A DNA stretch of 41,764 nt, the filler included, from Bonamia ostreae (Eukaryota), in the NCBI GenBank assembly GCA_040357525.1. It is 20 parts of 20 records of this genome, joined end to end, with 100 filler letters (N's around TTAATTAATTAA, not from the genome) between each part and the next. Parts side by side here need not be neighbours in the genome. Positions count along the whole stretch, not along the records: positions 20,924 to 41,764 come from JBDODL010000002.1; 19 more parts are not named here. One strand, given 5' to 3'. Shown here piece after piece: positions 20,401 to 37,060 of the stretch; the stretch's first letter is position 1; each line of letters opens with the position of its first letter. Under the pieces are notes generated by a model, which had not been told where the DNA came from, did not search any database, and worked only from the letters and a program-made list of their open reading frames with translations. The position numbers and the translations under genes were made by a program.

Positions 20401-20999
20401 TGCCAGTAGCTTAATCCTAGTAGTAAAAATAATATCACACTTTGTTTAACACATGTACCAGAAGCAGTTATATATTTGCATCGTTGTTTCAGACTCTCCG
20501 ACATTCAGAGTAAAACCACGTCAAGAATTATCCTATAACGACAGGTAAATCAGATTTAGTAATGTGTTTGAAATTTTAGCTTGGAAAGACATTTGTGCAT
20601 GGGTATGACCTTCTTGTCTATATATTACGTATTTATACTCGTATCTATACAACTTTGCTCTTTATGATACGATTCAAGATCCACATTCACAGTTCCGATT
20701 TCCCTGACCATCGTGTACAAAGTATAACATAAACATCATAAATTATCTACAGTGTTTCCTACTCATAACCAAATTTTCCTAAGCATGTATTGATATATTA
20801 CAATAATCTCCAGGAATCATGTTNNNNNNNNNNNNNNNNNNNNNNNNNNNNNNNNNNNNNNNNNNNNTTAATTAATTAANNNNNNNNNNNNNNNNNNNNN
20901 NNNNNNNNNNNNNNNNNNNNNNNCTTATTTTTATGTCAGTAATTATTAATATTTTAAGGATTTTTTTAGGTCAATTACTGTAATTGGCCCGCTTTAATA

Positions 21000-22348
21000 T
21001 TGATTTTATTATGGTTATGCGGTAGTGCTTGAGTGGTTGTAGCATTAGACATACAAGCTTTATAAATACTTTTTTTAGTATTTATGGCGAACGGGTGAGT
21101 AATAAGAGATTTTGTACCTTCAAATTTATTTTAATATATTTTAAATTATTTTTTTTTAATTTATAGAATAGTTTTGTTTAAAAGCTAAGGGCGTTGTTGA
21201 TCTAATCTCTTCGAATCAGGCTATAATTTAATTTTTATTAACCGATGACTCGTAGCGGGTTGTAACGTAATACCTGCCACACACGAACTGAGACAAGGTC
21301 GTGACATTTGTCTGTAGTCTGGAATTTTGAACAATGAGTAATAGCTCGATTTGGCTAAACCACTAAGAGTAAGTTACATATTATGCTTTAATAACTGACT
21401 TTTGGCATGAAAAAATAATGGCCCGGAAAAAAGCTGTGCCAGAAGCCTCGGCAATACAGTGTGGCCTGTGCTCCGTAGCGTGAATTGGTGTAAATGTAAT
21501 CAAACTAAAGAATGTCTAGATATGTTTTTATGAATCTATGTTTAGTTTTATCATATTTTGAATCATTCCTTTTTTATGAATTATTTCTATTTAAGCAGTA
21601 CTAATTATCTAAAGAAACAATCTTTTGGAGATTTTTAGGACTTCCGTTTTACAAAAAAGCTTTTAGGTTATAATTGACGTTGAATTTACTAAAGCAGGGG
21701 GCGCGACGGAGATTAGGTACCTCCTTAGTCCCTGCCCTGAATTTTGAGTATTAATTATATTTTAATATATTTTTATTATTATCGTATTAGAATACTTAAC
21801 CTCGATAGTATGGCCGCAAGGTGAAAACTGAAATAAATTGGCAGAGATTGGCGGAAACACTGGAGCGTGTAAATTAATTTGATAATCCCCGTTTTACCTT
21901 ACTATAACTTTTAGAAGGCGTTGCATGGTTTCGTTAGTATTTTGCTGTGAAGTATTTTATGACCCCCATTATGATTTATTTATATTAAGATCTAGTGGAA
22001 TTTAGTAAAATCGATATGGCCCTTATGTTATAGGCTTTATATTCGCTACCAAGAATATTTTTTAGTATTTTTATTAAATTAATTTTTATCTTATTTGGAA
22101 TATTTTCTGAAACTTGGAAATATGAAAAAGTAATTGTTAGTAATCATTTGTTTAGAATGCAATGATGAATTTTTTTCCAGTCTTGTTCAAACCGTCCACC
22201 ACCTCGTGTTGAGTTGTTTGAGTATTATATTTCTTTTAGGGTTTTAAAAAAAATATATTTTCTATTTTTCTTCTTTAGGGAAGTTACTCCTCATTCAGCA
22301 ATTTATGGTAAGGTGTAGCAAGGTAAGGGTACGAGAACGTGCCCTTGG
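21000..22348 (+). rRNA. rns: Mitochondrial small-subunit rRNA (ends approximate)
   Basis: GGCGAACGGGTGAGTAA, GTGCCAGAAGCCTCGGCAATAC, GATTAGGTACC, GGCCGCAAGG..AAACT, CTTGTTCAAACCGTCC and the AAGGTA-h45 hairpin occur in 16S order. Confidence 0.95.
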
Positions 22349-22419
22349 GGGCGTATAGTTTATTGTTAGAATAAAAGTCTTCAAAACTTTAGGAAAGGGT
22401 TAGATTCCCTTTGCGCTCG
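22349..22419 (+). tRNA. trnW: tRNA-Trp, anticodon UCA
   Basis: Acceptor GGGCGTA/TGCGCTC, anticodon arm AAAGT-CTTCAAA-ACTTT (TCA at 22381-22383), T arm AAGGG-TTAGATT-CCCTT. Confidence 0.93.
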
Positions 22420-22429
22420 TTTTATTAAA

Positions 22430-24283
22430 TTAATTTAATATTTAGGAATTAAAAATATTTAGTTATTTTTAAAAAATATTTTACTAATCTATGAAAATAT
22501 TTTTATAAAAAACATTTGTGTAATTTTAAGTGAATTGATATATCTTAGTAGTTTTTAAATATAATAATAATTCCCTTAGTATTGATGAGAGAAAAGGGTT
22601 TCCTTTTTTTAAGTTTTTTCTTTTAAAAAAATTTTTTAATTTCTATGGATTGATAGTACCGTGAGGGAATATTTTAAATTAATTTTTATAATATTTATAT
22701 TTATATATATTTTATATTTTTTTATCTATTATGTTTAATTTACCTTTTGTATAATGGACGTATAAGTTAATATATATAGTTTGCTTAATTTTTAGTTGTA
22801 GGCATAATTTTTGTAAGCTTTAAAAGGCTTTATTATATATATTATTACACGAAACTAGGCGAGCTAATTATGATAAATTTTTAGAATGAACCCGTTCTTG
22901 TTGCAATAAGATGGGATTAATTGTAATTAGAAGTGAAAAGCTAATCGAGCTTAGATATATCTTGTTTTCTGCGAAATATATTATAGTATAGCTTTAAAAA
23001 TAGTTAGATTCTTATATATTTGATTTTTTTTTTATTTTTTTTAAAATTATAAATATTAAATAAACTTTAAATTATTTTTATATTTTTAGTTAGACTATAA
23101 ATGTTAAGGTTTATAGTCAAAAGGGTATAGCCCAGAATGTTATTTAAGGATTTTAATGATTTTATATTTTATTTCTTTTTTATTTTGTATAAATTTATAT
23201 TAATTTTTGTCTTTTTTGAATTATTTTAAAAAGAGTACTTTATTGTTTTATTTTTAAAAATGTTATTAAATTTCTATTTTAAATATCTTCCGAAAATACA
23301 TTTAATTTTATTTAAGGTAGCAGAATTTTCTATTTTTAGATTAAAAATGTACGTATTAGTAGTGTTAATTATTTTATAACGTTTAAATTCTAAAAGTACT
23401 TTAATCAGTTATTTTTAAAACTGTTTTAATACCGACTCAGGTGGAATTTTTGAGTATATTTAAACGTGAATTAATTTTTCTTAAGGAACTCGGCAATATT
23501 TATCTGAGATTTTGTTTTATAGATATCTTAATTTTATTAAGAATTTTACAAATGAGAGGAGCGACTGTTTAACAAAAACATAAGGTTTTGCAAAATTTTA
23601 AGTATTACGTATAAAATCTGACACCTGCCCAGTGCTTATTTTTTAATTAGGTTTATTTGGTCAAATAAGTTTATATAACTAAGTTAACGGCGGTCTTATA
23701 CCTGAGGATCTTAAGGTAGCATAATTTTTTGTCCAGTGATTGTGGGATTGTGAGTGGTGTAACGACTTCTCTACTGTCTTAAGGAAAAGTTTAACGAAAT
23801 TGTATTTGTTGTGAAGATACAGCATTTTTATAGTAGGACGGAAAGACCCTATGAATCTTTACTATAAAATTAATTTGAATATAATTCTATTTTTATTTGG
23901 TATTTCCTATAATTATACTTTATTTTCTAAAAAAATAAAAAATTATTTTTGGTAGTTTTGCTGGGGAGGTAGCTTTTGAAATAATAACGAAAGTAAGCAA
24001 TGGTTTTAAATTTATATATATTATAATTAGTTTAATAGCTTTTTTTAATGCTTAACTGATTGATTGAGAATTCTTACAGTAACACATGTTTGCTATATTG
24101 AACGGATTTTTTTTTAAAAAAAATGAATCTTTTTATCGATAATAGATACTCTTTGGATATCAGGCTAATAGTATTAGTTGAATTTTTCTTGTATGCTGTT
24201 TGGCACCTCGATGTCGGCTTATCATGTCCTGTAGGTGTATAAGGTTTCAAGGGTTAGTTTGTTCTCCTATTATATTGTTACGA

Positions 24284-24316
<33 letters not shown>

Positions 24317-24530
24317 CCCTTATCCTCTATAAATTATTTTTTTTTAATTTATGCCTAGTACGAGAGGAATGGTTTTTATATACCTCTTGTGATTAGTAAT
24401 TATTATATATTTTTTGCTAATTAGCTACGTATTTATTAAATAAGAATTGATTTTATATAAATTCTGAAGTTATTTAAAAAAAAATATATTTTAAAATATT
24501 ATTATAATGGTTTTATAAGAATATATTTGT
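22430..24530 (+). rRNA. rnl: Mitochondrial large-subunit rRNA (ends approximate, about 2.1 kb)
   Basis: AGTACCGTGAGGGAA, AAGGAACTCGGCAA, GACGGAAAGACCC, GGCACCTCGATGTCGGCT, GAGCTGGGTTCAGAACGTCGTGAGACAGTTCGG and the sarcin-ricin loop AGTACGAGAGGA. Confidence 0.96.
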
Positions 24531-24570
24531 AAAAATTTTTTATAAAAAACTTTAATTTTTTTATAAAATT

Positions 24571-25095
24571 ATGAAAAAAGAACCTTTTTTAGTTATAAAA
24601 ACTTCGACAAGAATTGTAGATGATATTTCTAATTTTCCTATTGTTATAAGAAATTACTTTTACTCTTACAATAGAAAGCCCATTTCTTCTAAAAATATTT
24701 CTGGTAAATATTTACATGGTTTTTGTATTGTTACAGGCATAGGAGGTAATTTTTTAGAAGTGAAAGCTTTTTGTAATAGTAATAAATGGGCTTTTAAAAA
24801 TATTTATGTTAAGAAACTCGTTTATACTAAATCCGGCATACCTGTTGGTAAAATAGTACATTATTATTTGCGTAGGGTTTTTGTTGTTACTTATGAAAGT
24901 AAATTTTCAGATATTTTTATAGGGCAAGTCTTATGTATTTTTGATAAGTCTTATATATCCGATTCTTTAAATTTATCAGACCCTTTACCATATAATTATC
25001 GTTTAAATGTTAAATGCCGTTTATTAAAAAGAGATTATGATTTTTATAGAGATGTTTATAGGTATAAGTGAATTGGTAAAAGATATCTTTTTTAA
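24571..25095 (+). CDS. 174-aa ORF (one UGA) resembling the F1-ATPase alpha/beta N-terminal beta-barrel
   Basis: IVTGIGGNFLEV...KNIYVKKLVYTKSGIPVGKI...VFVVTY..SDIFIGQVL versus alpha RVLSIGDGIARV..NNIQAEELVEFSSGVKG...VGIVLF..DRLVKEGELV; by-eye alignment. Confidence 0.5.
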
Positions 25096-25097
25096 AT

Positions 25098-25598
25098 ATG
25101 CTTAAAATATTATTTTATTTTAAATATTTTTTTTCTTATTTAACTGCTTTATTTAAAAATATAAAAACTTTTTCTTTTGGTAGTATTTTATTAAAATTGT
25201 TTTATTATTTGATAAAATTTCAGACTGTTTTTAAGTATTTTTATTATATTTTTTTTATTGTTTTTATTTCAAAAAATTTTATTGCCTTTTATTATAAATT
25301 ACCAAATAAATCTTCTAATAATTTATTTTTAGAATTTTCTATCATTTTCTATTTTCTTATTTTAGTAATTAACCTATTATATTATTCTATAAATTATATT
25401 TATTATCTAGATTCTAATAATCTTTCTAATTTATTTTCTTATTATCATGTTTTTGTTTCTGGGGCTCAGTGACAATGAACTTATTCAGTTAGGTTTGATT
25501 TATCTCTAAATTCCTTTATTTTAAATTTAGATTTTATTACAAAGTCTTTAAATACTTTATTTGAATATATTTTTTTTATCAATGAATCCGATAGGTAA
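25098..25598 (+). CDS. cox2: Cytochrome c oxidase subunit 2, N-terminal membrane half only (166 aa)
   Basis: Two TM helices with LEF (canonical IEI) and IYYLD, then VSGAQWQWTYS (both W are TGA; canonical AIGHQWYWSYE). TAA at 25596 comes before any CuA motif. Confidence 0.8.
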
Positions 25599-26601
25599 GA
25601 GAAATTTTGATGAATTAATGACTGCTCGATTTCTATATGCTTTTAGACCTCGTCAATTTTTTAAAGGTCGTAGAATTCGTTGATTTTATTGAAGTGTCCG
25701 TATTTTTTTATGTTGTCATAGACTTATTTGTTATTACGTATACTTTTATAATAATCCTATTTTAATGGAACATGGGGATTATATTGAAAAAAAAAAAATA
25801 AGGCCTATATCTAGGATAAGGAATTTTCGTTTTTTTGATCGTTCTTTAAGGCAACACCTTAGTTTTTTCTATGATAAAGATTATATTCATTATCATGTTT
25901 TAAGTATTTATTATCATAAAAATTTTTATTTTATAAATTCTAATAATTACTATAAACTTTTTCTTAAGAAGAATAATGTTTTTTATTTTGAAGACGAGGA
26001 CTTTTTAAGCAAGTCTTTATTTTTATCAGATTTTTTATTCAAGGATTATATAGAAATATCACAATTTTGTGGATTCAGAGAAGGTCCTTCTCTTAGTAGA
26101 GGCGGTCTTATAAAGATGTATTCTTCTTTTATGGATTGATGATATTATTGAAGATTAATCTTTTTTAGAGGTCATCGAAAGCATCTTTTTTGATTGTGTT
26201 TGTTAGATTTAAGGGTTTATGGTGTTTGTTATAGTTATGGTTCTTTTTCAACAGTTTATCAGGATTTTGTTTCCTGGTATTCTTTATATGATAGTGAAGC
26301 TAGTCAAATGACGATTTATCTTAAATCTGCTATAATTAAACAAACTATTAAATACTGAGCTGAGTTAAAAATTGCCTTTATTTTCTTAGCTTCTTATAAT
26401 TTATTTTTACATGATAATGGCTGATGTGAGGGTGATTCAAAAAGGCTTTATAATAGTTTTCGAAGTGTTTTTTTAACTTATAAAATAAATTTTTATGGTT
26501 ATGAAATTATACAAAAAAAATTTTGGTGAAATATTAAACCCTTTCCAAATTCTTATGCATATGAGTTTTATGGCCCCTTTGCGCATACCCATAATTGATA
26601 A
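25582..26601 (+). CDS. Orphan ORF, 339 aa under UGA=Trp
   Basis: Continuous frame from ATG 25582 to TAA 26601 with many TGA codons; overlaps the cox2 end and the atp9 start. Confidence 0.7.
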
Positions 26602-26822
26602 TATTAGCAAGTAAACTTATCGCGGCAGGCCTCTGTGTCAGTGGCCTGGGCGCGGTGGGGGTGGGCATAGGTATTTTATTTTCTGGGTATTTATTATCTT
26701 TTTCTCGTAATCCTGGTTTGAAAAGTGAATTGTTTTCTACTTTAATATTAGGGTTTTCTTTAGTAGAAGCAATCGCTCTTTTTGGCCTCCTTATGGCCTT
26801 CCTACTTTTATTTGCTTTTTAA
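26595..26822 (+). CDS. atp9: ATP synthase subunit c (TTG start)
   Basis: GLGAVGVGIG, RNP loop, LGFSLVEAIALF with the proton-binding Glu. Confidence 0.97.
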   Translation: MIILASKLIAAGLCVSGLGAVGVGIGILFSGYLLSFSRNPGLKSELFSTLILGFSLVEAIALFGLLMAFLLLFAF

Positions 26823-26970
26823 AGCCCTACATTTTATTTATTTAAATTTCTAGAAGAATGTTTAGAAGATTTATTAAGTTTTTTATATTATATTTTCCCT
26901 TTTTTAGCACTTTTTTCTTTTTTTATATCTTCTAGTTATTTCTTCTTTTTATTTAAAAATTTAATTTTTT

Positions 26971-28092
26971 TTGGGTTTAGTTGATAGGGATGCAAGCTCT
27001 AATTGAATACCTACAGGTTATTTATCTTTTTCTGTTTTTGCTAATATTAGCTATGGTCAAAGGCAATTAATTGTTGGTGATAATAAATCTGGAAAAACTA
27101 ATTTAATGTCTAATATTTTAAAAAATATTTATGTTGATCATTTTTATACCTCTTTAAATGATTTAAACGTCTTAGCTTTTTATACTTTTATAAGTTCTTC
27201 TAAAAGTGAATTTGTTTACCATAAAAAAATGCATTTATTTTTAAATAAATTTTTTAATTTTTTTGTAAATGCTACCATTGGTCAAGAACCTTATTTTCAG
27301 TTTTATATCCCTCTTATTGTTTCTAATTTTTGTTTAAATATAGCTAGACAGGGTTCAAAAGCTCTTCATATTTTAGATAGCTTAGATAAACATGCAAAAA
27401 TTTATAGGAGTTTAATGCTAGATTTAAAAAGATCTCCCGGAAGAGAAGCCTATCCAGGTGATATTTTTTATATTCATTCAAGTTTATTAGAAAAGGGGGG
27501 ACATTTTTCTAATTTTTATGTTGGGGGCAGTTATACTTGTTTACCTATTGTAGAGACTCAGGAGGGTATTATTACTGATTATATTACTACTAATTTAATT
27601 TCTATTTCAGATGGTCAAATAATACTTTCTAAGGACTTGAGCTCTAAAGGTTTATTTCCTAGTTTTGATGCAGGGTTGTCTATTTCTAGACTTGGGTTTA
27701 CCACACAACCTTTTTTATTAAGATATTTAGGAGGTATTTTTAGAAGGATAATTTTTTCTTTCTCAAGTTTATCTGATTTAAAAAATAGTGGCGTTCTTTC
27801 AAAAAAAGATTTATTTTCTTATGATCAAGCAAGGAATGCTTATTTTTCTTTATTTTTACAAAAACCTTTTTCATATCTTAGATTAATAATTACATTATTT
27901 TTTTCAATTTTTTTACCTAATTATTTTTTATGTAATAATTCTAATAAATATTCTAAAATTATATCTTTTTTTCTATTAAAAAACTTTAATAAATATGCCT
28001 CTTTTTTATATTTAGCATCTTTTTCTAAAAATAAGAATAGTTTTAGAGCTTCTTTTAATTTTATGTGGTATTTATTGTTTAAAACATTTTAA
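26971..28092 (+). CDS. atp1: ATP synthase alpha subunit lacking the N-terminal domain (about 373 aa, probable TTG start)
   Basis: LGLVDR..WIPTG..GQRQLIVGDNKSGKT, PGREAYPGDIFYIHS, TNLISISDGQI, GLSISRLG. An in-frame TAA at 26962 lies just upstream. Confidence 0.93.
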
Positions 28093-28991
28093 TTAAATTT
28101 ATATATTCAATTATTAATCATTCTTTTTTTTTTAAATCTTCAAAAACTTGGAGTTATCTATTTGTATCTGCCTTTTTTTTAATATTTTTAATATTTCTGC
28201 AAACTTTTTCAGGAATTTTCCTTTCTTTAGGGGTTTGTAACCATTTATTTTTTATAAAAACTTTTCATTCCTTGGGAGCTACTCTTATAATGTTTTTTTC
28301 TTTTATACATATTTATAAAAATCTTTTTTTTAAAGTAGGTTCAGGGTTGAATGAATTTTCTACCTTTTTTTCTGGTGGCCTTGTATTTCTATTTTTAATT
28401 TTTATTTGTTTTACTGGTTCTATAGCACCTTGTGGTCAAATCTCTTATTGAGGTACTAAAGTTATTACAGGCTTTTTTGAAATAATTCCTTTTCTAGGTC
28501 ATCGTATTAAGTACGGAATTTGGGGGGATAAATTTATTTGTGAAAGTTTTGTCTTTCAAAGATTTTTTTTAATGCATGTTTTATTAGGGTGTTTTTTTTT
28601 ATTATTTCTTTTTTTTCATATATATTTTGCGCATAGTAAGAAATCTATTGTTTATCCATTAACTTCTTTAGAATTTTGTCAAAAAGTTTCTTTTATTTTT
28701 CCAGATACTTATATAAAGGATTTTAGTGCATTATTGTGTTTTATTTTCATAATTTCTATTTATTTTTACCTAGGTGATTTTTATTTTGAGGAAGATTTAA
28801 ACAAATCTCCAGTAACTTCAGAACAAACTCCTTTAAATATGAGGCCTTCGTGATATTTTTGAGTTAGTTTTTCCTCTTTAAAATATATTTCTTCTAAATT
28901 TTTTGGAATGCTTTTGAGTATTTTCTTATTGGTTTTTTGAATTTTTTCTATTTTCGATTGTAATTTTATTTTAGACTATTGTATTTTTTAA
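28086..28991 (+). CDS. cob: Divergent, shortened cytochrome b (about 300 aa, no ATG start)
   Basis: Four haem-ligand His (FHS, IHI, MHV, FHI), GQISYWG and PSWYF, with W encoded by TGA. Confidence 0.93.
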
Positions 28992-29629
28992 TAGAAATTT
29001 TAAATCTTTTTTCTATGTTATATTTTTCAAAATATTGATCAAATAATTTTCTTTTTTTTTCTAAATCTTACTTTTATTACATTTTCTCTCTTTTTTATGG
29101 TTATTTTTTATTAAATTTATTGGGTGAGAAGGATTCTTCTTTTTTAGTAAAAGAACTTTTCTTTATATTTATTTTTTATTCCTTTTTTTTAATTATTTCT
29201 TCTTTTATCTCTTTTTGTAATGATAGCTTTACTACTTCTTTCCTTAATTTATTATTAGAACTTTTTTTTATTACTTGGATAATAACTTATATCCCTGATT
29301 TTTTTATATATGGGTTAAAATCTTTTAATAATAAATTAATTTCTTTAGATAATTTTTTTTTTAAGTTTTTTAAATTTATTATAGAATTTTTTAGTTTTTT
29401 TATTAAATCTTTTGTTTTAAGTCTTCGTATAAATACTAACCTTATTTCAGGCCATTTATTATTTTCTATTTTATTTCTATTTTTTGAATTTTCTATTAGT
29501 TTATTTTCTAATATTTTTTCATTTTATATTTTAATTTTTCTTTTTATTTTAGAATTTTTTATTATTTTCATACAGTGTTATGTTTTGTTTTTACTTCTTA
29601 TTATATATTTACAGGAAAATTTGCTTTAA
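28991..29629 (+). CDS. atp6: ATP synthase subunit a (start uncertain: 28979 TTG, 28991 ATA or 29015 ATG)
   Basis: FLLNLLG, IEFFSFFIKSFVLSLRINTNLISGHLL with the essential Arg, and LEFFIIFIQCYVL. Confidence 0.92.
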
Positions 29630-29631
29630 TT

Positions 29632-30954
29632 GTGATAAGAAGACGTAAACTTGTTAGAGTTAATAGACCTTTTTTAATTACTTATAAAAATTTTTCTTGA
29701 AAAAAATATTTTTTTATTAAAAATTCTTGTTTTAATCCAATTTTATATAATTGTATTAATAATAATTTTTTAAAAACTCTTGCAAGATTTCATTCCTGTG
29801 ATTTTTCGATAAAAAATGATCCTTCTTTTTTAGTCAATAGTGCTTCTTATATCGATACTTCTTATTACTTTTATTCTAATAATTTTTTTTTATTTTCGAG
29901 ACTAGTAAAAACTCTTCTTTGTAGAAGATTAAATTGGGTAAAGGTTCGTAAGATTTCTAATTATTTTATAAGAGGTTCATTGCCTGTAAGGTTTATAAAA
30001 AAATCTTATTTTTTTAATTATATAAATAAAATAAATTATTTATACTGTAAATGATCTGGCAAATATTCTATAAGATCTTTTAATTTTTCTAGATTTAGGG
30101 AATATTTTCTATTTTCTAATAAAAATTATTTACCTTTTAAACGTACTCCTTATCATTTAAAAATTTCTTTCTATAATGAAAGAAGGCTTACTTTCTTTTT
30201 TAACTTAAGAAAGTTTATATTGTCTTCTCTTTTTTATAAGGGAGGTGTTTTCTTTCTCTTTAATTATAAAAAGTTTTTACGTAATTTTCTTCCAATAAGT
30301 CTTAAAAGAAGTCTTAAGAGGTTGAGAAATTCTTTATCTTTTAATACCGAAACTCTTTTTTATCTATCCTTACAAAAGGATTTTAGGTTTTTATTTAAAT
30401 ACTTTTATAGAAGAAATTTTGGTTATTTTTTTAAACGTTATTTTAAATTTAGGAAAGTTATTAGAAGGCCTCGTTATAAAAAGTTTTTAATATTTTATTA
30501 TAGGGATTTATTTTTTTATTCAAAAAAAATATATTTTCTTGATTCTTTAATTTCTAGGAATATTTTACAAAATTTTATAAATAAGAATGTTATTTTTCTC
30601 CCAAATTATTTTATAAAATTTAATAAATCTTTTTTATATTTTCCAAACACTTTTTTATTTAGTTATTCTGGTAGAAGAAGTTATTATAGAAATTTTTATT
30701 TATCTTTACATGGTCCAATAATTTTAAATCTTTTTTTAATTTATTATCTATTTATTAAAAATAATTTTTTTTTTGATTTATCTGAAAATGTAGGGGTTTC
30801 TAATATGTTAAATTTTTATGTGGTTTCTTATTTTCTTAATAAATCTTTTTATTATTTCGGGTCTAGTTATTTTTTAAAAAATGTTAGTAATGATTCTTCT
30901 AATTTTTTAACTAATTATCATTTTTTAAAATATTCTCATTTTTATGACTTATAA
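29632..30954 (+). CDS. Basic 440-aa ORF (GTG start, UGA=Trp), possibly a divergent ribosomal protein S4
   Basis: Uninterrupted K/R/F/Y-rich frame. LQKDFRFLFKYFY...YYRDLFFYSKKIYFLDSL...QNFINKNVIF weakly recalls the S4 core. Confidence 0.45.
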
Positions 30955-31690
30955 AAAAATATCTTTTAAACTTAAAATTAAACCTTCTTTTAAGTATTGT
31001 TTTCGATTAAAACGTTTTTATAAAGTTCATTATATTTTTAATAAATCTAAATTGTTTACTTCACTTTCATATAAAGTTTTTCCAAAACCCTTTTTTAATA
31101 AAACTACTTTTTTAACTAATGAGTGTTTTAAGCTAAGTAAAACTACTTATTTTGGGTATTCTCTATATTATTTTTCTGGTAAAAAAGGTTTTTGAGTTCT
31201 TTTAAAATATATTTCTTTTTTTAAAATAAAACGTTTATTAGGTTTTATGAATGTGTATTTAGAAGGTTATCAGGTTTTTTATTTTTATCTTTGTCTTTTT
31301 ACCGATGTCTTTTTTAGTTGAGAATCAAGTACATTATTTACTAATTTTTATTTATTAAATTCTTTTCTTCTTTGAGAAAGGCGTCAACTTTTGTGGTGAG
31401 TTAGGCTTAGTTCTAAGGTATATTATTCTTTTTATCTTCTTGGAGAAGGCCCTGTTTTTAAACGTTTAAAATATTTTTCTTTAAATAAATTAACTATTTA
31501 TAGAAAAGGCCGTTTATTAAATGTTAAATGATGTCGTAATTTATTTATTAATAAACTTCCAGGGTTTTCTTTAGTTAAAAATCCTTATAATAAAATAGGT
31601 TCCTATTATTCCTTTGATGTGAAAGAATATACTTCTATATGAGGTTCATATAGTATTTCTGTAAATATAAATTATAGTGTTAAGTTTTAA
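30944..31690 (+). CDS. rps3: Ribosomal protein S3-like, 248 aa
   Basis: C-terminal LTIYRKGRL...YTSIWGSYSISVNI matches the S3 C-domain (IKI..SGRL...TKYG.IGVKVWI); the frame is continuous through TGA codons. Confidence 0.7.
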
Positions 31691-32219
31691 TAATTTTTTT
31701 TTCAAATTTTCCAAATTTGCTTCTTATTTGTATGAAGTTGTTAATTTTAATAATAAAACGCTTTTTTCTTTTGGTTTAAGACTCTTTATCTTAAGTGAGT
31801 TATTAATTTTTTTAACGTTAATACTTTCTTATTATTATTCTCTTTGTAATTTAGCTCCTTGTTTTGATATTTTTTTATTTCATTCTTCTTTTATCTTTGA
31901 TTCTATAAATTTTTATTTAGGACAATATTTTTTAATTTTTTTACTAAGTTTTTTATTATTTAGTATTAAAAATACTTGTTATATTATTTCTTCTTTTGTT
32001 ATAAATAATAATTCTATTCTTTCTTTTTTTGATTATATAAATTTTGTTTTAAATATATCTCTTATTTTTATTTTTATTCAGTTTTTTGAATTTTTTTCAC
32101 AGAGTTTTTGTATTTTTGATAGTAGTTTTGGGGTTTTTTTCTATGAAATTTTAGGGTTACATTGTTTTCATGTTTTTCTTGGAACTATTTTTACTATTTA
32201 TGGGTTTAAAAGACTTTAA
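31677..32219 (+). CDS. cox3: Cytochrome c oxidase subunit 3, central fragment (helices 3-6)
   Basis: GLRLFILSE, FIQFFEF, IFDSSFGVFFYEILGLHCFHVFLG. Stops flank it at 31668 and 32217. Confidence 0.88.
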   Translation: MLSFNNFFFKFSKFASYLYEVVNFNNKTLFSFGLRLFILSELLIFLTLILSYYYSLCNLAPCFDIFLFHSSFIFDSINFYLGQYFLIFLLSFLLFSIKNTCYIISSFVINNNSILSFFDYINFVLNISLIFIFIQFFEFFSQSFCIFDSSFGVFFYEILGLHCFHVFLGTIFTIYGFKRL

Positions 32220-32227
32220 TAAAAATT

Positions 32228-32914
32228 ATGAATTATAGTAGTACTTTTTTTAATTGATTATTTAGGAAATATAAGGTTATTTCAAACCATAAGGCTTTTA
32301 AAATTTTTATACAAATTTTTATGTTTTTTTGTAAATATTTAAATAAGTTAACTTTTGTTGCAATTACTGTTTTACTGGTTAGCGGGGTATGGAAAGAGTT
32401 GTCTGAATTTAGGATCTATATTTTTATTGTAAAGTATTTAAAAATTTTTCTTTTAAAAATTATTTCTGGAAGGGCTGAAGATTATTTAGTACAAGAGTGG
32501 TATCCGCGTAATAAAGATCTTTTTATTCTAGCAGCTCCTAGGGAAATTTATTTACTTTTACGCCCATATTTAAAAAAATTTTACCTGCGTTATTATGTAA
32601 AGAATAAGGGTTGCCTTCTTAGTGGTCTTTTTTTTAATCTTTGGGAGGATACTGCTGAGGGAATGTCTAGATCTTTTTGATGACAGCCATTATATTTACC
32701 AGTATATATTTGTTTTTATTCTTATGCAATTGTTTTTGTACCCCCATATCTTATATATTTTACTATAACTCAGACTATTATTTTTCTAAAAAATTATTAT
32801 ATTTGAGCTAAAAAAGCTTCTTGATATGCGGTAATAAAAAGTCTTTTAATTTTTTGTTTTCGAATTTTTTTAATATTTATGACCTGATATTTTTGAAATT
32901 ATTATGTGATTTAG
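32228..32914 (+). CDS. Orphan membrane ORF, 228 aa under UGA=Trp
   Basis: ATG 32228 to TAG 32914, continuous through TGA codons. Confidence 0.65.
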
Positions 32915-32924
32915 AATACGCTTT

Positions 32925-33470
32925 ATGTTATTTTTACTTTTTAGTAATAGTAATTTTTTTTCATTTCTTTATCTTTGATTTATATATATTATTACAAGTT
33001 ATTATTTTTGAATATTTATTTTCTTCTATTCTTTATTTTTTATCCCTCTTTTTTTTAAAAGGTTTCGCGCTTACATAATTATTTTCTTTAAATTAATTTT
33101 TTATCTTTTCATGATATTATTAACTATTTTTATTTTTTATCTTCTTTATATTTATTTGATGGAATTTTATTTTGACCCTTGTATATATTTTGCTACTATT
33201 CTTTTTCTTTTGAAATATTATATTCTTATATACTTAATTACCTTTTTTATTCATTTTAAAGAATCCTTTAAATCAGTAATGTTTACCATTTTCTTTTATT
33301 ATTTTAAATTTATTATTTCACTTAGAGTTTTTATTATTAATTTTCCTATAAATCCTAAATATTTAGCTTTTAAGAAATTTATATTTACTCGATGAGTTCA
33401 GGAAAGTATATTTATTTTCTTCTATGGTATGTTTACTTCAATAGGTTATGATATTATGCGCTTTAATTAA
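32925..33470 (+). CDS. Orphan hydrophobic ORF, 181 aa under UGA=Trp
   Basis: ATG 32925 to TAA 33470, tiling directly after the previous ORF. Confidence 0.55.
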
Positions 33471-33564
33471 TATTTTTAATATTGTCCTATTTTCTCTTTA
33501 AGAATATTTTTACTTTAAAAAAATTCCTTTGTATATTATTGATAAATTTAATCGTGTTTTTGTA

Positions 33565-33771
33565 ATGCCTTTAATTCGTTGAAATCTTTTTTATTTTAAT
33601 ATGAGTCTTTTAATAAATAATTTATTAATATGTTTGCTTTTTGATATTATTTTTGTATTTATATTTATAATGCCTTTAGTAGTAATTTTAATGGTTTATT
33701 ATTTTTTTATATTATTTTATTTGTATACTTATTTAAATAGATCTATTTTTTATAATAAAAGATTAATTTAG
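33565..33771 (+). CDS. Small hydrophobic ORF (68 aa; frame open from 33502)
   Basis: Fills the gap before cox1; no motif recognised. Confidence 0.3.
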
Positions 33772-33788
33772 TTTTTTATTTATATAAT

Positions 33789-35315
33789 ATTATTCATTCT
33801 TTTTTTAATTATATTAATTTTTTTTATTTCTTTAAATATATTTCTTCTTTAGATCATAAAAGGATTGGTTTATTATATTTATTTTTTGGTATTTTTTGTG
33901 GGTTTTTGGGAACTTATTTATCAGGTATTATACGTATTGAACTTATTTATCCATACCCTTATATTTTGAGTGGGGCTAATTTAGCTTATAATGTAGTTGT
34001 TACTGCTCATGGAATTATAATGGTTTTTTTTGCAACTATGCCAATATTTTTAGGAGGGTTTGGTAATTATTTTATTCCTTTAATGATAGGCTGTCGTGAT
34101 ATGTCTTTTCCTAGGTTAAATAATATGGCTTTTTATATTCTTGTAATGTCTTTTTTCGTTTTATTGCTTTCTAGCGGTTCTTTATTAGGTTTTTTTCAAG
34201 GCCCTTCATTTGGGTGAACACTCTACCCACCCCTTTCTATTATAACACCAGGAGTTTCTTTAAATCTTTTTATTATTTCTTTACATTTAAATGGCGTTTC
34301 TTCTATTATAAATTCTATTAATACTTTGGTAACAATACACTTCTGTTCTTCTATAGGTTTGTGACATCTTGGTTTGTTTATTTGAAGTCTTTTAATTACT
34401 TCTTATTTAGTTTTATTAGTTATGCCTATTTTAGTTGTAGCAATTACTACTTTATTAGCCGATAATATTTTAGGAACTTGTTTTTTTATTGTTTCTGGAG
34501 GAGGTGATCCTATATTATTTCAACATCTCTTTTGACTTTTTGGTCATCCTGAAGTATATATACTTATATTACCTTCTTTTGGGCTTGTAAGTGAATTTTT
34601 ATCTGAGAGATCTAGCTCTTTATTAATAGGTCATTTACTCATGATTTGGTCTATGCTTACTATTGGTTTATTAGGTTGTATTGTTTGAGGACATCATATG
34701 TTTACTACAGGCCTTTCTGTTGATTCTAGTGCTTTTTTTACTATAGTTACTACTTTAATAGGTCTTCCTACAGGCCTTAAAGTTTTAATATGATTAGGTG
34801 CTTTTTTAAAAACTCCATTTAAAATCGATATTCCAGTAGCTTTTTCTTTAGCTTTTATATTTACTTTTACTATGGGAGGTCTTACAGGTATTTGTTTAGC
34901 TCAAGCAGGCCCTGATTTAGCTTTACATGATACTCATTTTGTTGTAGCCCATTTTCATTATGTAATGGCAATCTCTATTATACATATGTTTTTTGGGGCT
35001 GTTTATAACTGGTATTTTCTCTGAACAGGTCTTCAATATAATCATTCTTATGCCTGAGCTCATTTCTTAAGTTTTTTTATCGGAACTCACTTAATATTTT
35101 TTCCAATGCATTTTGCTGGGTTATTAGGAATGCAGCGCAGGGTTGCGGAATATTATTTTTCTTTTTATATCTGAAATTTTTTCAGTAGTTTAGGTTTTTT
35201 TATTACTTTATTTTCTCTATTTTTCTTTATATTAGCTTTAAGCCCTCTTTTAAGGAATTTGACTCATAAACTTTGTCTTTTTTTTATATCTGGATTTCTT
35301 GATACTATCAAATAA
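33789..35315 (+). CDS. cox1: Cytochrome c oxidase subunit 1 (no ATG; ATT start, position uncertain)
   Basis: [74 protein letters not shown] at 35313. Confidence 0.98.
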
Positions 35316-35430
35316 ACCTCTTTTAAATTGAAGTACTTGGTATTATCATTTTTTTCAGTTTTTTTATTACTATTGAGAAATGGTTGATTTTGTTTGATTA
35401 TTCTTACTTCTTTTTATATATATTTCTTAA
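35299..35430 (+). CDS. cox3: cox3 C-terminal fragment (helix 7), about 43 aa from TTG
   Basis: YYHFFQFFYYYWEMVDFVWLFLLLFIYIS* versus canonical [22 protein letters not shown]; both motif W are TGA. Absent from the ORF track. Confidence 0.8.
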
Positions 35431-35441
35431 TATTTTTATAA

Positions 35442-35708
35442 ATGTTTTACGATTATTTTTTTCCTTTTTCAAAAATGTTTAGTAAAAATTCTATGGTATT
35501 TGGTGCCGTAGGATTGAGTTCGGGTTCTTATTTATCAGGTACTTCTGATAATGTATTTTCTTCTTATGGCGAAAATATAGGCATTATTGCGAGTTTATCA
35601 AGTAATGGTAAAATATACTCTTATAAAACTGGAAATTTATTTTCAATAGATTCAAAAAATCCTTATTTTTTTTCTATACTTAGGTATTTTTTTATATACA
35701 TTAGATAA
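35442..35708 (+). CDS. 88-aa ORF resembling the ATP synthase alpha N-terminal beta-barrel
   Basis: MVFGAVGLSSG...GENIGII...YKTGNLFSI versus RVYGLNEIQAG...NENVGIV...KRTGSIVDV. Confidence 0.5.
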   Translation: MFYDYFFPFSKMFSKNSMVFGAVGLSSGSYLSGTSDNVFSSYGENIGIIASLSSNGKIYSYKTGNLFSIDSKNPYFFSILRYFFIYIR

Positions 35709-35899
35709 TATATAGCTTAGGTAGCTATATATTTTTATATTTTAATTTTTTTATTTATTTTTTTAAATATTTTTAAGGATTGGGACTATTTTCTTCATTT
35801 AAATAGTGGGTATATTAGCACATTTTTTTATTACTAATATTTTTTTATTAATAGATTGGGTGGGAGTGCTATATTTAGGTTATTTATATTTTTATTACT

Positions 35900-37048
35900 A
35901 TGATTTTTTTTGAATTTTTAAAATATTTGAATGATTATGTAACCAAATGGTTTAATGTTTTATTTTTATATGTTTCTTATTTTTTTATAAATAAATCTCT
36001 AGTAAGATTGATTTTAATTTCTATCCTTTTTTGATATTGTTTTTGTATTTCAATAATAGTTTTTTTTAGTTATTTATGGCATGTTTTTTGCTTTATTTAT
36101 TTTTTAGAAGTTTCTTTCTTTTTAATAAATTTTATTATTTGCAAAGCTTTATCCCTTTATTCATTATCTTTAAAACCTTTTTATTTTTTTATTTCTAAAT
36201 TATTTACTTTTAAGTTTTATTTTAAGGTATGTAAGAAAATAACTTTTTTAAATTTTTTTATTATTTATTTTAGTTATTTTTTTATAGCGTTATATGATTT
36301 TATTAACTTTATTCCTTATTTAATAATCTTTTCTTTTTATCTTTTATTTAGGTATTTTCTTGTACATCTTTCCTTTGTTTTTTCTACAACTAAACCACTT
36401 TTTCGTTTTTTAGATAGATTGTCTTTTTATATTTATTGAGAGTCTTTTTTTAATAGTAGTTTAGTTTATAAAGATATGTGTAAATTGAGTAGACATTTTC
36501 CACAAATATATCCTTTTTTATTACTTTTTTCAAAATTTAATTCTTCTTTTTATTTTTTTCCAACTGATGAAATTATGTATATTTGGTCTTTTGAAGCATT
36601 AATACATGCGTATATAAAATTACTAAGATTTTATCTCTTTTTTAGGCCTTTTATTATTTTTTTATATTATTTAGTCTATTTTCTTAAAATTTTATTAACT
36701 ACTTTTTTTATAGTATTATTTTTATATTTTAGTTTTTTAATTTTCCCTTATTTACCATGCTTTATTCCTAAAAATATTTTTTTCTTTTTTGAAAATATAA
36801 GTTTTTTTGAATATTTTTCTTGTTTTAATATTAAAGAATTTTTTTTAATAAATTCTTCTTTTTATATAATTTTTTTTTATGTTTCTGTCCTTATTTTTTA
36901 TATTTATTTTCTCATTTTCTTCCAGTATTCTTTTTTTTTAATTTATTTTGACTTATTTTTTGTAATTTTATTAATTTTTATTTTCTTTAGTTATTATTTA
37001 ATTAATTCAATCTTTCCTTTATTTTCTATCTTATTATTTAATTATTGA
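35900..37048 (+). CDS. Orphan very hydrophobic ORF, at least 382 aa under UGA=Trp
   Basis: Open from ATG 35900; F/L/I/Y-rich. It ends in TGA at 37046-37048, which would read Trp, so it may run to TAA 37060. Confidence 0.55.
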
Positions 37049-37060
37049 TTATTTTCTTAA

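Follow-up and report, generated by a model that had tools for sequence, protein, structure and literature searches.

In mitochondria COX3 takes the form of one polypeptide with seven helices, which raises the question of how the subunit is made where its gene stops before the last of them. Such a gene lies in a stretch of 41,764 nucleotides (nt) from Bonamia ostreae (GenBank assembly GCA_040357525.1), called the window here, in which positions 20924-41764 (JBDODL010000002.1) are a single 20.8-kb mitochondrial contig, AT-rich and read with TGA as Trp. Its cox3 is in pieces: a main open reading frame (ORF) encodes helices 3-6, and helix 7 is encoded separately, in a mini-frame lying across the stop codon of cox1. 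This arrangement is confirmed. On balance, sequence comparison suggests that it probably represents a fissioned cox3, in which helix 7 would be translated separately, into a peptide of ~43 residues crossing the membrane once.

The larger piece is recognizable as COX3 by several methods. It matches Pfam COX3 (PF00510) at profile positions 75-218 of 258 with an expectation value (E) of 7e-9 and a score of 36.4 bits, which exceeds the curated cut-off of 23.8 bits and places it in the family. In the PDB it aligns to COX3 chains from residue ~80-88 to 215-230, the best match being 8c8q_C (residues 86-224 of 269, E 2.7e-7), and hhalign against a profile of 22 COX3 sequences gives a probability of 99.5% (E 1.1e-22, positions 75-223). 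By sequence it is nearest to the seven-helix COX3 of mitochondria and Alphaproteobacteria; no single polypeptide in the window carries all seven helices. The encoded protein ends in ...HCFHVFLGTIFTIYGFKRL, four residues past helix 6. The ORF ends ...GLHCFHVFLGTIFTIYGFKRL, followed by TAA TAA, of which the second in-frame TAA occupies 32220-32222. The Pfam boundaries and the double stop thus bear out the preliminary description of this locus, in which the main ORF was said to stop ahead of the missing helix 7.

Helix 7 is encoded 3.08 kb 3′ of the main ORF, beyond orf234, orf198, orf89 and cox1. The mini-frame is in the +1 frame relative to cox1 and stays open for 58 codons, from 35254 to a TAA at 35428-35430; counted from 35254, it overlaps cox1 by 62 nt. 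It has no ATG start. The first ATG, GTG or TTG is the TTG at 35299, from which a mini-ORF of 43 codons can be read, and other possible starts are ATT 35257, ATA 35266 and ATA 35302. The encoded helix-7 motif, YWEMVDFVWLFL, keeps the Asp and VWLFL, while the His of YWH(F/L/M)VD, found in all 20 helix-7-bearing sequences of alignment A2, is replaced by Glu.

In Pfam COX3, the 43-codon mini-ORF aligns at positions 231-255 with E 0.054 and 13.8 bits, below the family cut-off, and the 58-residue stop-to-stop frame gives E 0.5. It is assigned to the COX3 family by two further comparisons instead. The first is a BLASTP match to the last 33 residues of the related protein P0123 (13/33 identical, 26/33 positive, E 1e-7), in which both sequences end two residues past FIY. 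The second is hhalign against the 22-sequence profile, which includes P0123 (92.5%, E 4.7e-7, positions 237-258 of 258). Among 177,635 distinct PDB sequences the mini-frame has only four matches at E<=10, all of them extreme C-termini of COX3. A custom hidden Markov model (HMM), built from 16 full-length COX3 proteins with clade members excluded, was also run over the 551 six-frame ORFs of the window. The main ORF ranked first (73.8 bits) and the mini-frame second (11.9 bits, HMM positions 234-261); the third-best ORF reached only 4.4 bits. A score of 11.9 bits or more was obtained by none of 22,040 shuffled ORFs, 551 reversed ORFs or 5,000 shuffled mini-frames (maxima 9.3, 7.8 and 9.3 bits, respectively).

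The base composition of the mini-frame is that of a gene. Its third codon positions (T.58, A.28, G.09, C.05) match those of the known genes of the contig (T.60, A.27, G.07, C.06), which neither of the other frames of this DNA does. TGA serves as the codon for three of the four Trp residues in the mini-frame. The preliminary description had claimed that helix 7 lies in a separate frame 3 kb downstream, over the cox1 stop, with its conserved His changed to Glu, and had made alignment of the 43-residue peptide to COX3 helix 7 a condition of its reading. The P0123 match, the empty controls and the 20 homologues sustain both claims, and the alignment falls where it was expected, at the sub-threshold score given above.

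Relatives of the window gene indicate how the two pieces once stood together. An exhaustive HMMER search with the main ORF returned 42 proteins, three of them from the same clade (P0122, P0123 and P0124); a word-indexed protein search yielded 413 candidates and none at E<=0.01. The starts of P0123 (218 amino acids, aa), P0124 (184 aa) and the window ORF differ by a few residues and lie ~25-30 residues before the SELLIF motif of helix 3; P0122 (170 aa) has a shorter N-terminus. In P0123 helix 7 is contiguous with the body, and the protein ends ...CFWYWHLIDFVWLFIILFIYVN at its stop codon. P0123 is encoded on L001 (1,344 nt), a metagenome contig among the matches listed for alignment A1; a scan of viral and genome contig collections with that alignment gave no match. 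Of the 551 window ORFs only two match the L001 cox3, the main ORF at E 8e-6 and the mini-frame at E 5.2e-4, the next-best ORF having E 2.4. Identity to it is 61% (11/18) in the helix-7 core and 36% over 165 residues of the body. Helix 7 is therefore at least as conserved as the body, which argues for continued selection. The ORF upstream of cox3 on L001 (3-305) is homologous to orf253, the ORF upstream of cox3 in the window (BLASTP E 0.002, phmmer E 2.7e-4), so the cox3 body is at its ancestral place. ORFs downstream of cox3 on L001 have no significant match among the window ORFs.

Set on the COX3 profile, the pieces are complementary, without gap or overlap of substance: the main ORF covers 75-218 (Pfam) or 75-223 (hhalign) and the mini-frame 231-255 or 237-258. 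These comparisons demonstrate the homology of both pieces, their complementary extent, a break that falls in a loop, and an open frame whose codon composition resembles that of genes. An AlphaFold model of P0123, with a mean predicted local distance difference test (pLDDT) of 74.9, has five long helices, of which helix 7 spans 188-217. Its best Foldseek matches are COX3 chains, among them five-helix bacterial subunit III, with template modelling (TM) scores of 0.5-0.67 and E 0.03-1, none at or below 0.001.

The cox3 genes of the window, P0123 and P0124 lack helices 1-2, which the nearest outgroup, P0121 (257 aa), has. No ORF among the 551 rises above noise at positions 1-75 of the custom HMM (3.0 bits or less), as the preliminary description had anticipated in calling these helices missing. 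Ten unassigned ORFs, including orf89 and orf253, have an hhalign probability of at most 0.3% against the COX3 profile. It is possible that the two helices were lost, moved to the nucleus or diverged beyond recognition. The same description had put forward orf89, which encodes two helices, as the N-terminal part, and this proposal falls: its hhalign probability is 0.3%, with the alignment in the wrong region, it has no Pfam COX3 match at E<=10, and it lies outside the 15 best matches of the custom HMM. Nor does orf253 supply the missing helices, since it is homologous to the ORF upstream of the L001 cox3; its hhalign probability against COX3 is 0.1%.

A fission of cox3 may have proceeded as follows. 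The ancestor of the clade would already have lost helices 1-2 and possessed a five-helix subunit III (helices 3-7), as in the contiguous P0123. A rearrangement would then have severed helix 7 from helix 6 in the loop that joins them on the matrix side. Helices 3-6, a body of 180 aa, would have stayed behind orf253 and now carries the double stop, whereas the helix-7 piece would have moved 3.08 kb 3′, into the +1 frame across the cox1 stop. Translation of the small piece could begin at TTG 35299 or at a nearby ATA or ATT, and would probably be coupled to termination of cox1, because overlapping or abutting neighbours are common on this contig. In complex IV the peptide would then attach to the body of helices 3-6, much as the COX3 fragments of Tetrahymena join each other.

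The absence of an ATG is in keeping with start codons elsewhere on the contig. In cox1 the first ATG, GTG or TTG (33906) lies inside the conserved domain, so its start must be non-canonical. More generally, both cox1 (33759-33906) and cob (28083-28272) have conserved sequence upstream of their first such codon, which indicates that non-canonical starts are used. Separate translation of helix 7 is favoured on the strength of these non-ATG starts, the overlapping neighbours and the assembly of COX3 from two fragments in Tetrahymena, and we infer that the peptide would also assemble and function. A cut in a loop, complementary pieces and a conserved small piece fit functional fission better than decay.

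Parts of this arrangement have counterparts in known systems. In dinoflagellates two oligoadenylated transcripts, cox3H1-6 and cox3H7, are trans-spliced (Jackson and Waller, 2013; PMC3577742). There, as in the window, the gene is interrupted between helices 6 and 7, and the last helix forms a small genomic element of its own. Unlike in dinoflagellates, the first piece in the window ends in a double stop, helix 7 overlaps the 3′ end of cox1 on the same strand, and the gene also lacks helices 1-2. The dinoflagellate genome, of the myzozoan type, holds three protein genes and fragmented rRNAs, whereas the window has contiguous small-subunit (SSU) and large-subunit (LSU) rRNA genes, atp1, atp6, atp9 and cob. 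Given these different types of genome, the shared break is most likely convergent. A literature search that was not exhaustive, and that covered main texts with supplements outside it, found no split of cox3 between helices 6 and 7 beyond the dinoflagellates.

The closest parallel at the protein level comes from ciliates. Cryo-electron microscopy of the Tetrahymena supercomplex identifies Ymf67 as COX3a and Ymf68 as COX3b, two mitochondrially encoded polypeptides that assemble (PMC10060162). There the complementary fragments are encoded in separate mitochondrial ORFs on one strand, as in the window, and after separate translation they rebuild the COX3 fold. The same mechanism is favoured for the window. 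The ciliate break falls after helix 1, with one tRNA gene between the pieces and extensions of 200-400 residues; that of the window falls after helix 6, the pieces lie 3 kb and four ORFs apart, and the small one is a bare helix of ~43 residues.

The lack of helices 1-2 recalls the five-helix subunit III of bacteria, such as Escherichia coli CyoC and actinobacterial CtaE. The P0123 model superposes on 7xmc_C, 7q21_E and 6wti_C with TM scores, normalized to the target, of 0.59-0.64, and the window main ORF matches 7q21_E and 9wcx_f weakly by sequence. Unlike the window gene, these five-helix subunits are bacterial and single-chain. Other fissions are known in mitochondria, including cox2a/cox2b, the split nad1 of ciliates and foraminifera, and the C-terminal fission of cox1. 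These likewise cut a membrane subunit in an inter-helix loop and express it as pieces; they concern different subunits, and in several cases one piece is nuclear.

Several observations count against separate translation of a functional helix-7 piece. The Pfam score of the mini-ORF is under the cut-off, and E-values just as weak are reached by further ORFs of the contig for unrelated families (for example DcaP 0.043, UAA 0.064), so this match is insufficient by itself. Replacement of the His by Glu could reflect relaxed constraint. A run of eight T (T8) in the overlap with cox1 offers a route for frameshifting. With the 58-residue frame as query, a word search over proteins of 31-102 aa, in which three shared 5-residue words are required, gave no free-standing helix-7 peptide; such a search is not evidence of absence, as tiny overlapping ORFs are rarely called. 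P0124 and P0122, like the main ORF, stop shortly past helix 6. The split could therefore be old or recurrent; alternatively, gene calling may have truncated these proteins at TGA or at the end of a contig.

Of the alternatives to fission, decay is unlikely, if marginally less so than the others. The helix-7 segment would then be an unexpressed relic of a recent rearrangement, with COX3 either working without helix 7 or receiving it from the nucleus. An invariant His turned into Glu, the missing ATG and a general reduction of the genome, in which atp1 has no match for its N-terminal domain, cob is short and no nad gene was found, would all agree with such a relic. However, the frame is intact and gene-like in codon composition, and its YW..VD.VWLFL...IY core is 61% identical to that of a relative whose cox3 body is only 36% identical. 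The mini-frame also begins exactly in the loop where the main ORF stops, and a free-running segment of 130 nt in a fast-evolving contig should decay quickly unless the event was very recent.

It is also improbable that helix 7 is made as part of COX1, through a +1 frameshift, transcript slippage or a one-base assembly error at the T8 run, a route beyond the two polypeptides or RNA trans-splicing between which the preliminary description left the choice. At 35254, where the +1 frame opens, 59 nt remain to the cox1 stop, and a +1 slip, or one T fewer at the run, would carry cox1 into the helix-7 frame; after such a slip tRNA-Phe could re-pair. The product would be COX1, a linker of ~30 residues and helix 7 of COX3 as a thirteenth helix. 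Its topology would be sound, as the C-terminus of COX1 and the start of COX3 helix 7 both lie on the matrix side. Some bacterial oxidases, moreover, fuse subunits I and III or carry subunit III helices on subunit I, as in E. coli CyoB. For Perkinsus, mitochondrial genes with conserved frameshifts are reported (PMC9550989). Nevertheless, downstream of the T8 run the cox1 frame keeps its likeness to the closest cox1 and ends at a similar stop (...ISGFLDTIK against ...RYGFLKFFKAD in P0164/P0005), and no other gene of the contig needs a frameshift. Three DNA runs, some possibly from the source sample, contain 99-100% of the sampled 31-mers, which weakly opposes a random indel error. That helix 7 has actually changed owner, being made as the thirteenth helix of COX1 via a +1 shift at this run, is distinctly doubtful. 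If true, a core subunit would have been dismantled helix by helix, with helices 1-2 gone and helix 7 donated to a neighbour, in a mitochondrial mirror of the way bacterial quinol oxidases handle helices 1-2 of subunit III.

Comparable doubt attaches to joining at the RNA level, whether the RNAs for helices 3-6 and helix 7 are trans-spliced or a 3-kb cis 'intron' holding cox1 is removed, either of which would restore a COX3 of ~215 aa. The break coincides with the helix 6/7 boundary at which the later-branching dinoflagellates trans-splice (PMC3577742), and trans-splicing is suggested for the split nad1 of foraminifera (PMC10127745). Joining would nonetheless have to remove the two in-frame stops that end the main ORF. 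The preliminary description saw no group I or II intron remnants, and Rfam agrees: it detects no such intron or other RNA family in 31600-35700 at E<=1 and, over the whole window at the gathering score, only rRNAs and one tRNA. Nor do repeats or complementarity link the regions around ~32216 and ~35290, between which the only find is a 15-nt inverted match of 87%, expected by chance in AT-rich DNA; no convincing repeat that might give rise to another arrangement was found either. The genome is, in addition, not dinoflagellate-like, having intact rRNA genes as well as atp1, atp6 and atp9.

Chance similarity in the F/Y/L-rich translation of AT-rich DNA, or a chimeric assembly, is very improbable: the Pfam match of the mini-frame is weak when taken alone (E 0.054-0.5), but none of 27,591 control sequences reaches its custom-HMM score, it matches the exact C-terminus of a clade relative (E 1e-7; hhalign E 4.7e-7), all four PDB matches are COX3 C-termini, and misassembly is unlikely as the cause of the split, since the helix 6/double-stop and cox1-end/helix 7 junctions each occupy some tens of bases, short enough for one read to cover, and several runs contain their k-mers.

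Table 1. Features of the mitochondrial contig, in window coordinates.
Feature	Position	Strand	Remarks
cox3 main ORF	31677-32219	+	180 aa, GTG start; end of helix 2 and helices 3-6
cox3 helix-7 mini-ORF	35299-35430	+	43 codons, TTG start; overlaps cox1 stop
Overlap of mini-ORF and cox1	35299-35315	+	last five cox1 sense codons and stop
T8 run	35278-35285	+	in overlap of cox1 and mini-frame
cox1	33759-35315 (frame)	+	Pfam COX1 E 8.8e-113, residues 35-481 of 518-aa frame; stop TAA 35313-35315
orf89	33502-33771	+	two-helix ORF, proposed as helices 1-2 (rejected)
orf248/253	30944-31690	+	upstream of cox3, 14-nt overlap with cox3
SSU rRNA	20993-22360		Rfam
tRNA, anticodon UCA	22349-22419		Trp under code 4
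LSU rRNA	22482-24506		Rfam

The contig around cox3 (Table 1) has a small set of recognizable genes: rns, trnW and rnl, and downstream of the rRNAs atp9, atp1, cob, atp6, cox3 and cox1, all on the + strand and readable only with TGA as Trp. Its coding region has ~20-26% GC. About ten ORFs have no family match, for example those at 29512-30951, 32210-32911, 32874-33467 and 35879-37057. No gene for complex I (nad) was detected by Pfam among 110 + strand ORFs in 24550-41764; upstream of 24550 the space is taken up by the tRNA gene and those for SSU and LSU rRNA. The two rRNA matches fall short of their models (1,368 nt against 1,533, and 2,025 nt against 2,925), and tRNA-Trp(UCA) overlaps the 3′ end of the SSU rRNA match by 12 nt (22349-22360).

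Two further genes call for comment. atp1 (26965-28092) matches only the nucleotide-binding domain PF00006, from profile position 7, with no match for the N-terminal beta-barrel or the C-terminal domain. Nor is there a matching frame in the 146 nt that separate the atp9 frame, which ends at 26819, from that of atp1, so that atp1 appears to be truncated or split. Pfam COX2 is matched by none of the ORFs. In the region 25080-26601, the ORF at 25080-25595 encodes two hydrophobic stretches followed by ...GAQWQWTYS, which we take to recall the motif behind the transmembrane hairpin of COX2; cox2 may be highly divergent, or split over this ORF and the next (25552-26598).

The end of the contig, 37061-41764, carries a tandem duplication of ~2,349 bp. 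Its copies contain identical ORFs of 558 aa (37061-38737 and 39410-41086), which belong to no Pfam family and have a much lower AT bias in the C-terminal half; the small ORFs 3′ of the two copies differ by one residue. A terminal repeat may account for the duplication, or else a collapse or expansion during assembly. The remainder of the window, 1-20823, consists of 19 unrelated pieces of 1,000-1,003 nt in descending order of length, joined by linkers of the form N44-TTAATTAATTAA-N44. They have 25-48% GC and few long ORFs; in one piece, 1308-1712 encodes the end of an SNF2-related helicase domain (E 6.4e-9). These pieces look like small nuclear contigs of the same assembly, outside the mitochondrial genome.

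The closest cox1 proteins are metagenome sequences with 51-61% identity (P0001-P0006 and P0164), which places the organism in a poorly sampled protist clade whose proteins are otherwise known from metagenomes only. Among these relatives, P0005 and P0163 are cox1 fragments, a C-terminal one of 387 aa and an N-terminal one of 142 aa, on a single contig of 7,626 nt; they overlap by 17 identical residues, as would be expected of a circular contig whose ends overlap, and the same cox1 is complete as P0164 on a contig of 24,945 nt. P0124 is likewise encoded on a contig of this length. Retarian and foraminiferal mitogenomes have partly similar gene sets (atp1/6/9, cob, cox1-3, truncated rRNAs, code 4) and, unlike the set detected here, include nad genes.

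Split mitochondrial genes reveal where membrane proteins tolerate cuts and still assemble, and how far changes of gene order are tolerated. With a second, unrelated lineage broken at the dinoflagellate position, the loop between helices 6 and 7 appears to be a structurally permissive seam of COX3. The cox3 of this contig probably combines that breakpoint with a ciliate-like solution at the protein level and a five-helix core. If helix 7 is indeed made alone, few pieces of respiratory subunits encoded in mitochondria would be as small, and it would be a warning that annotation pipelines miss such frames. In one foraminiferal mitogenome paper, cox3 is given as absent except for fragments of <50 bp (PMC13421374). 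With no nad genes detected and a five-helix subunit III, the clade to which this mitochondrion belongs merits a proper description.

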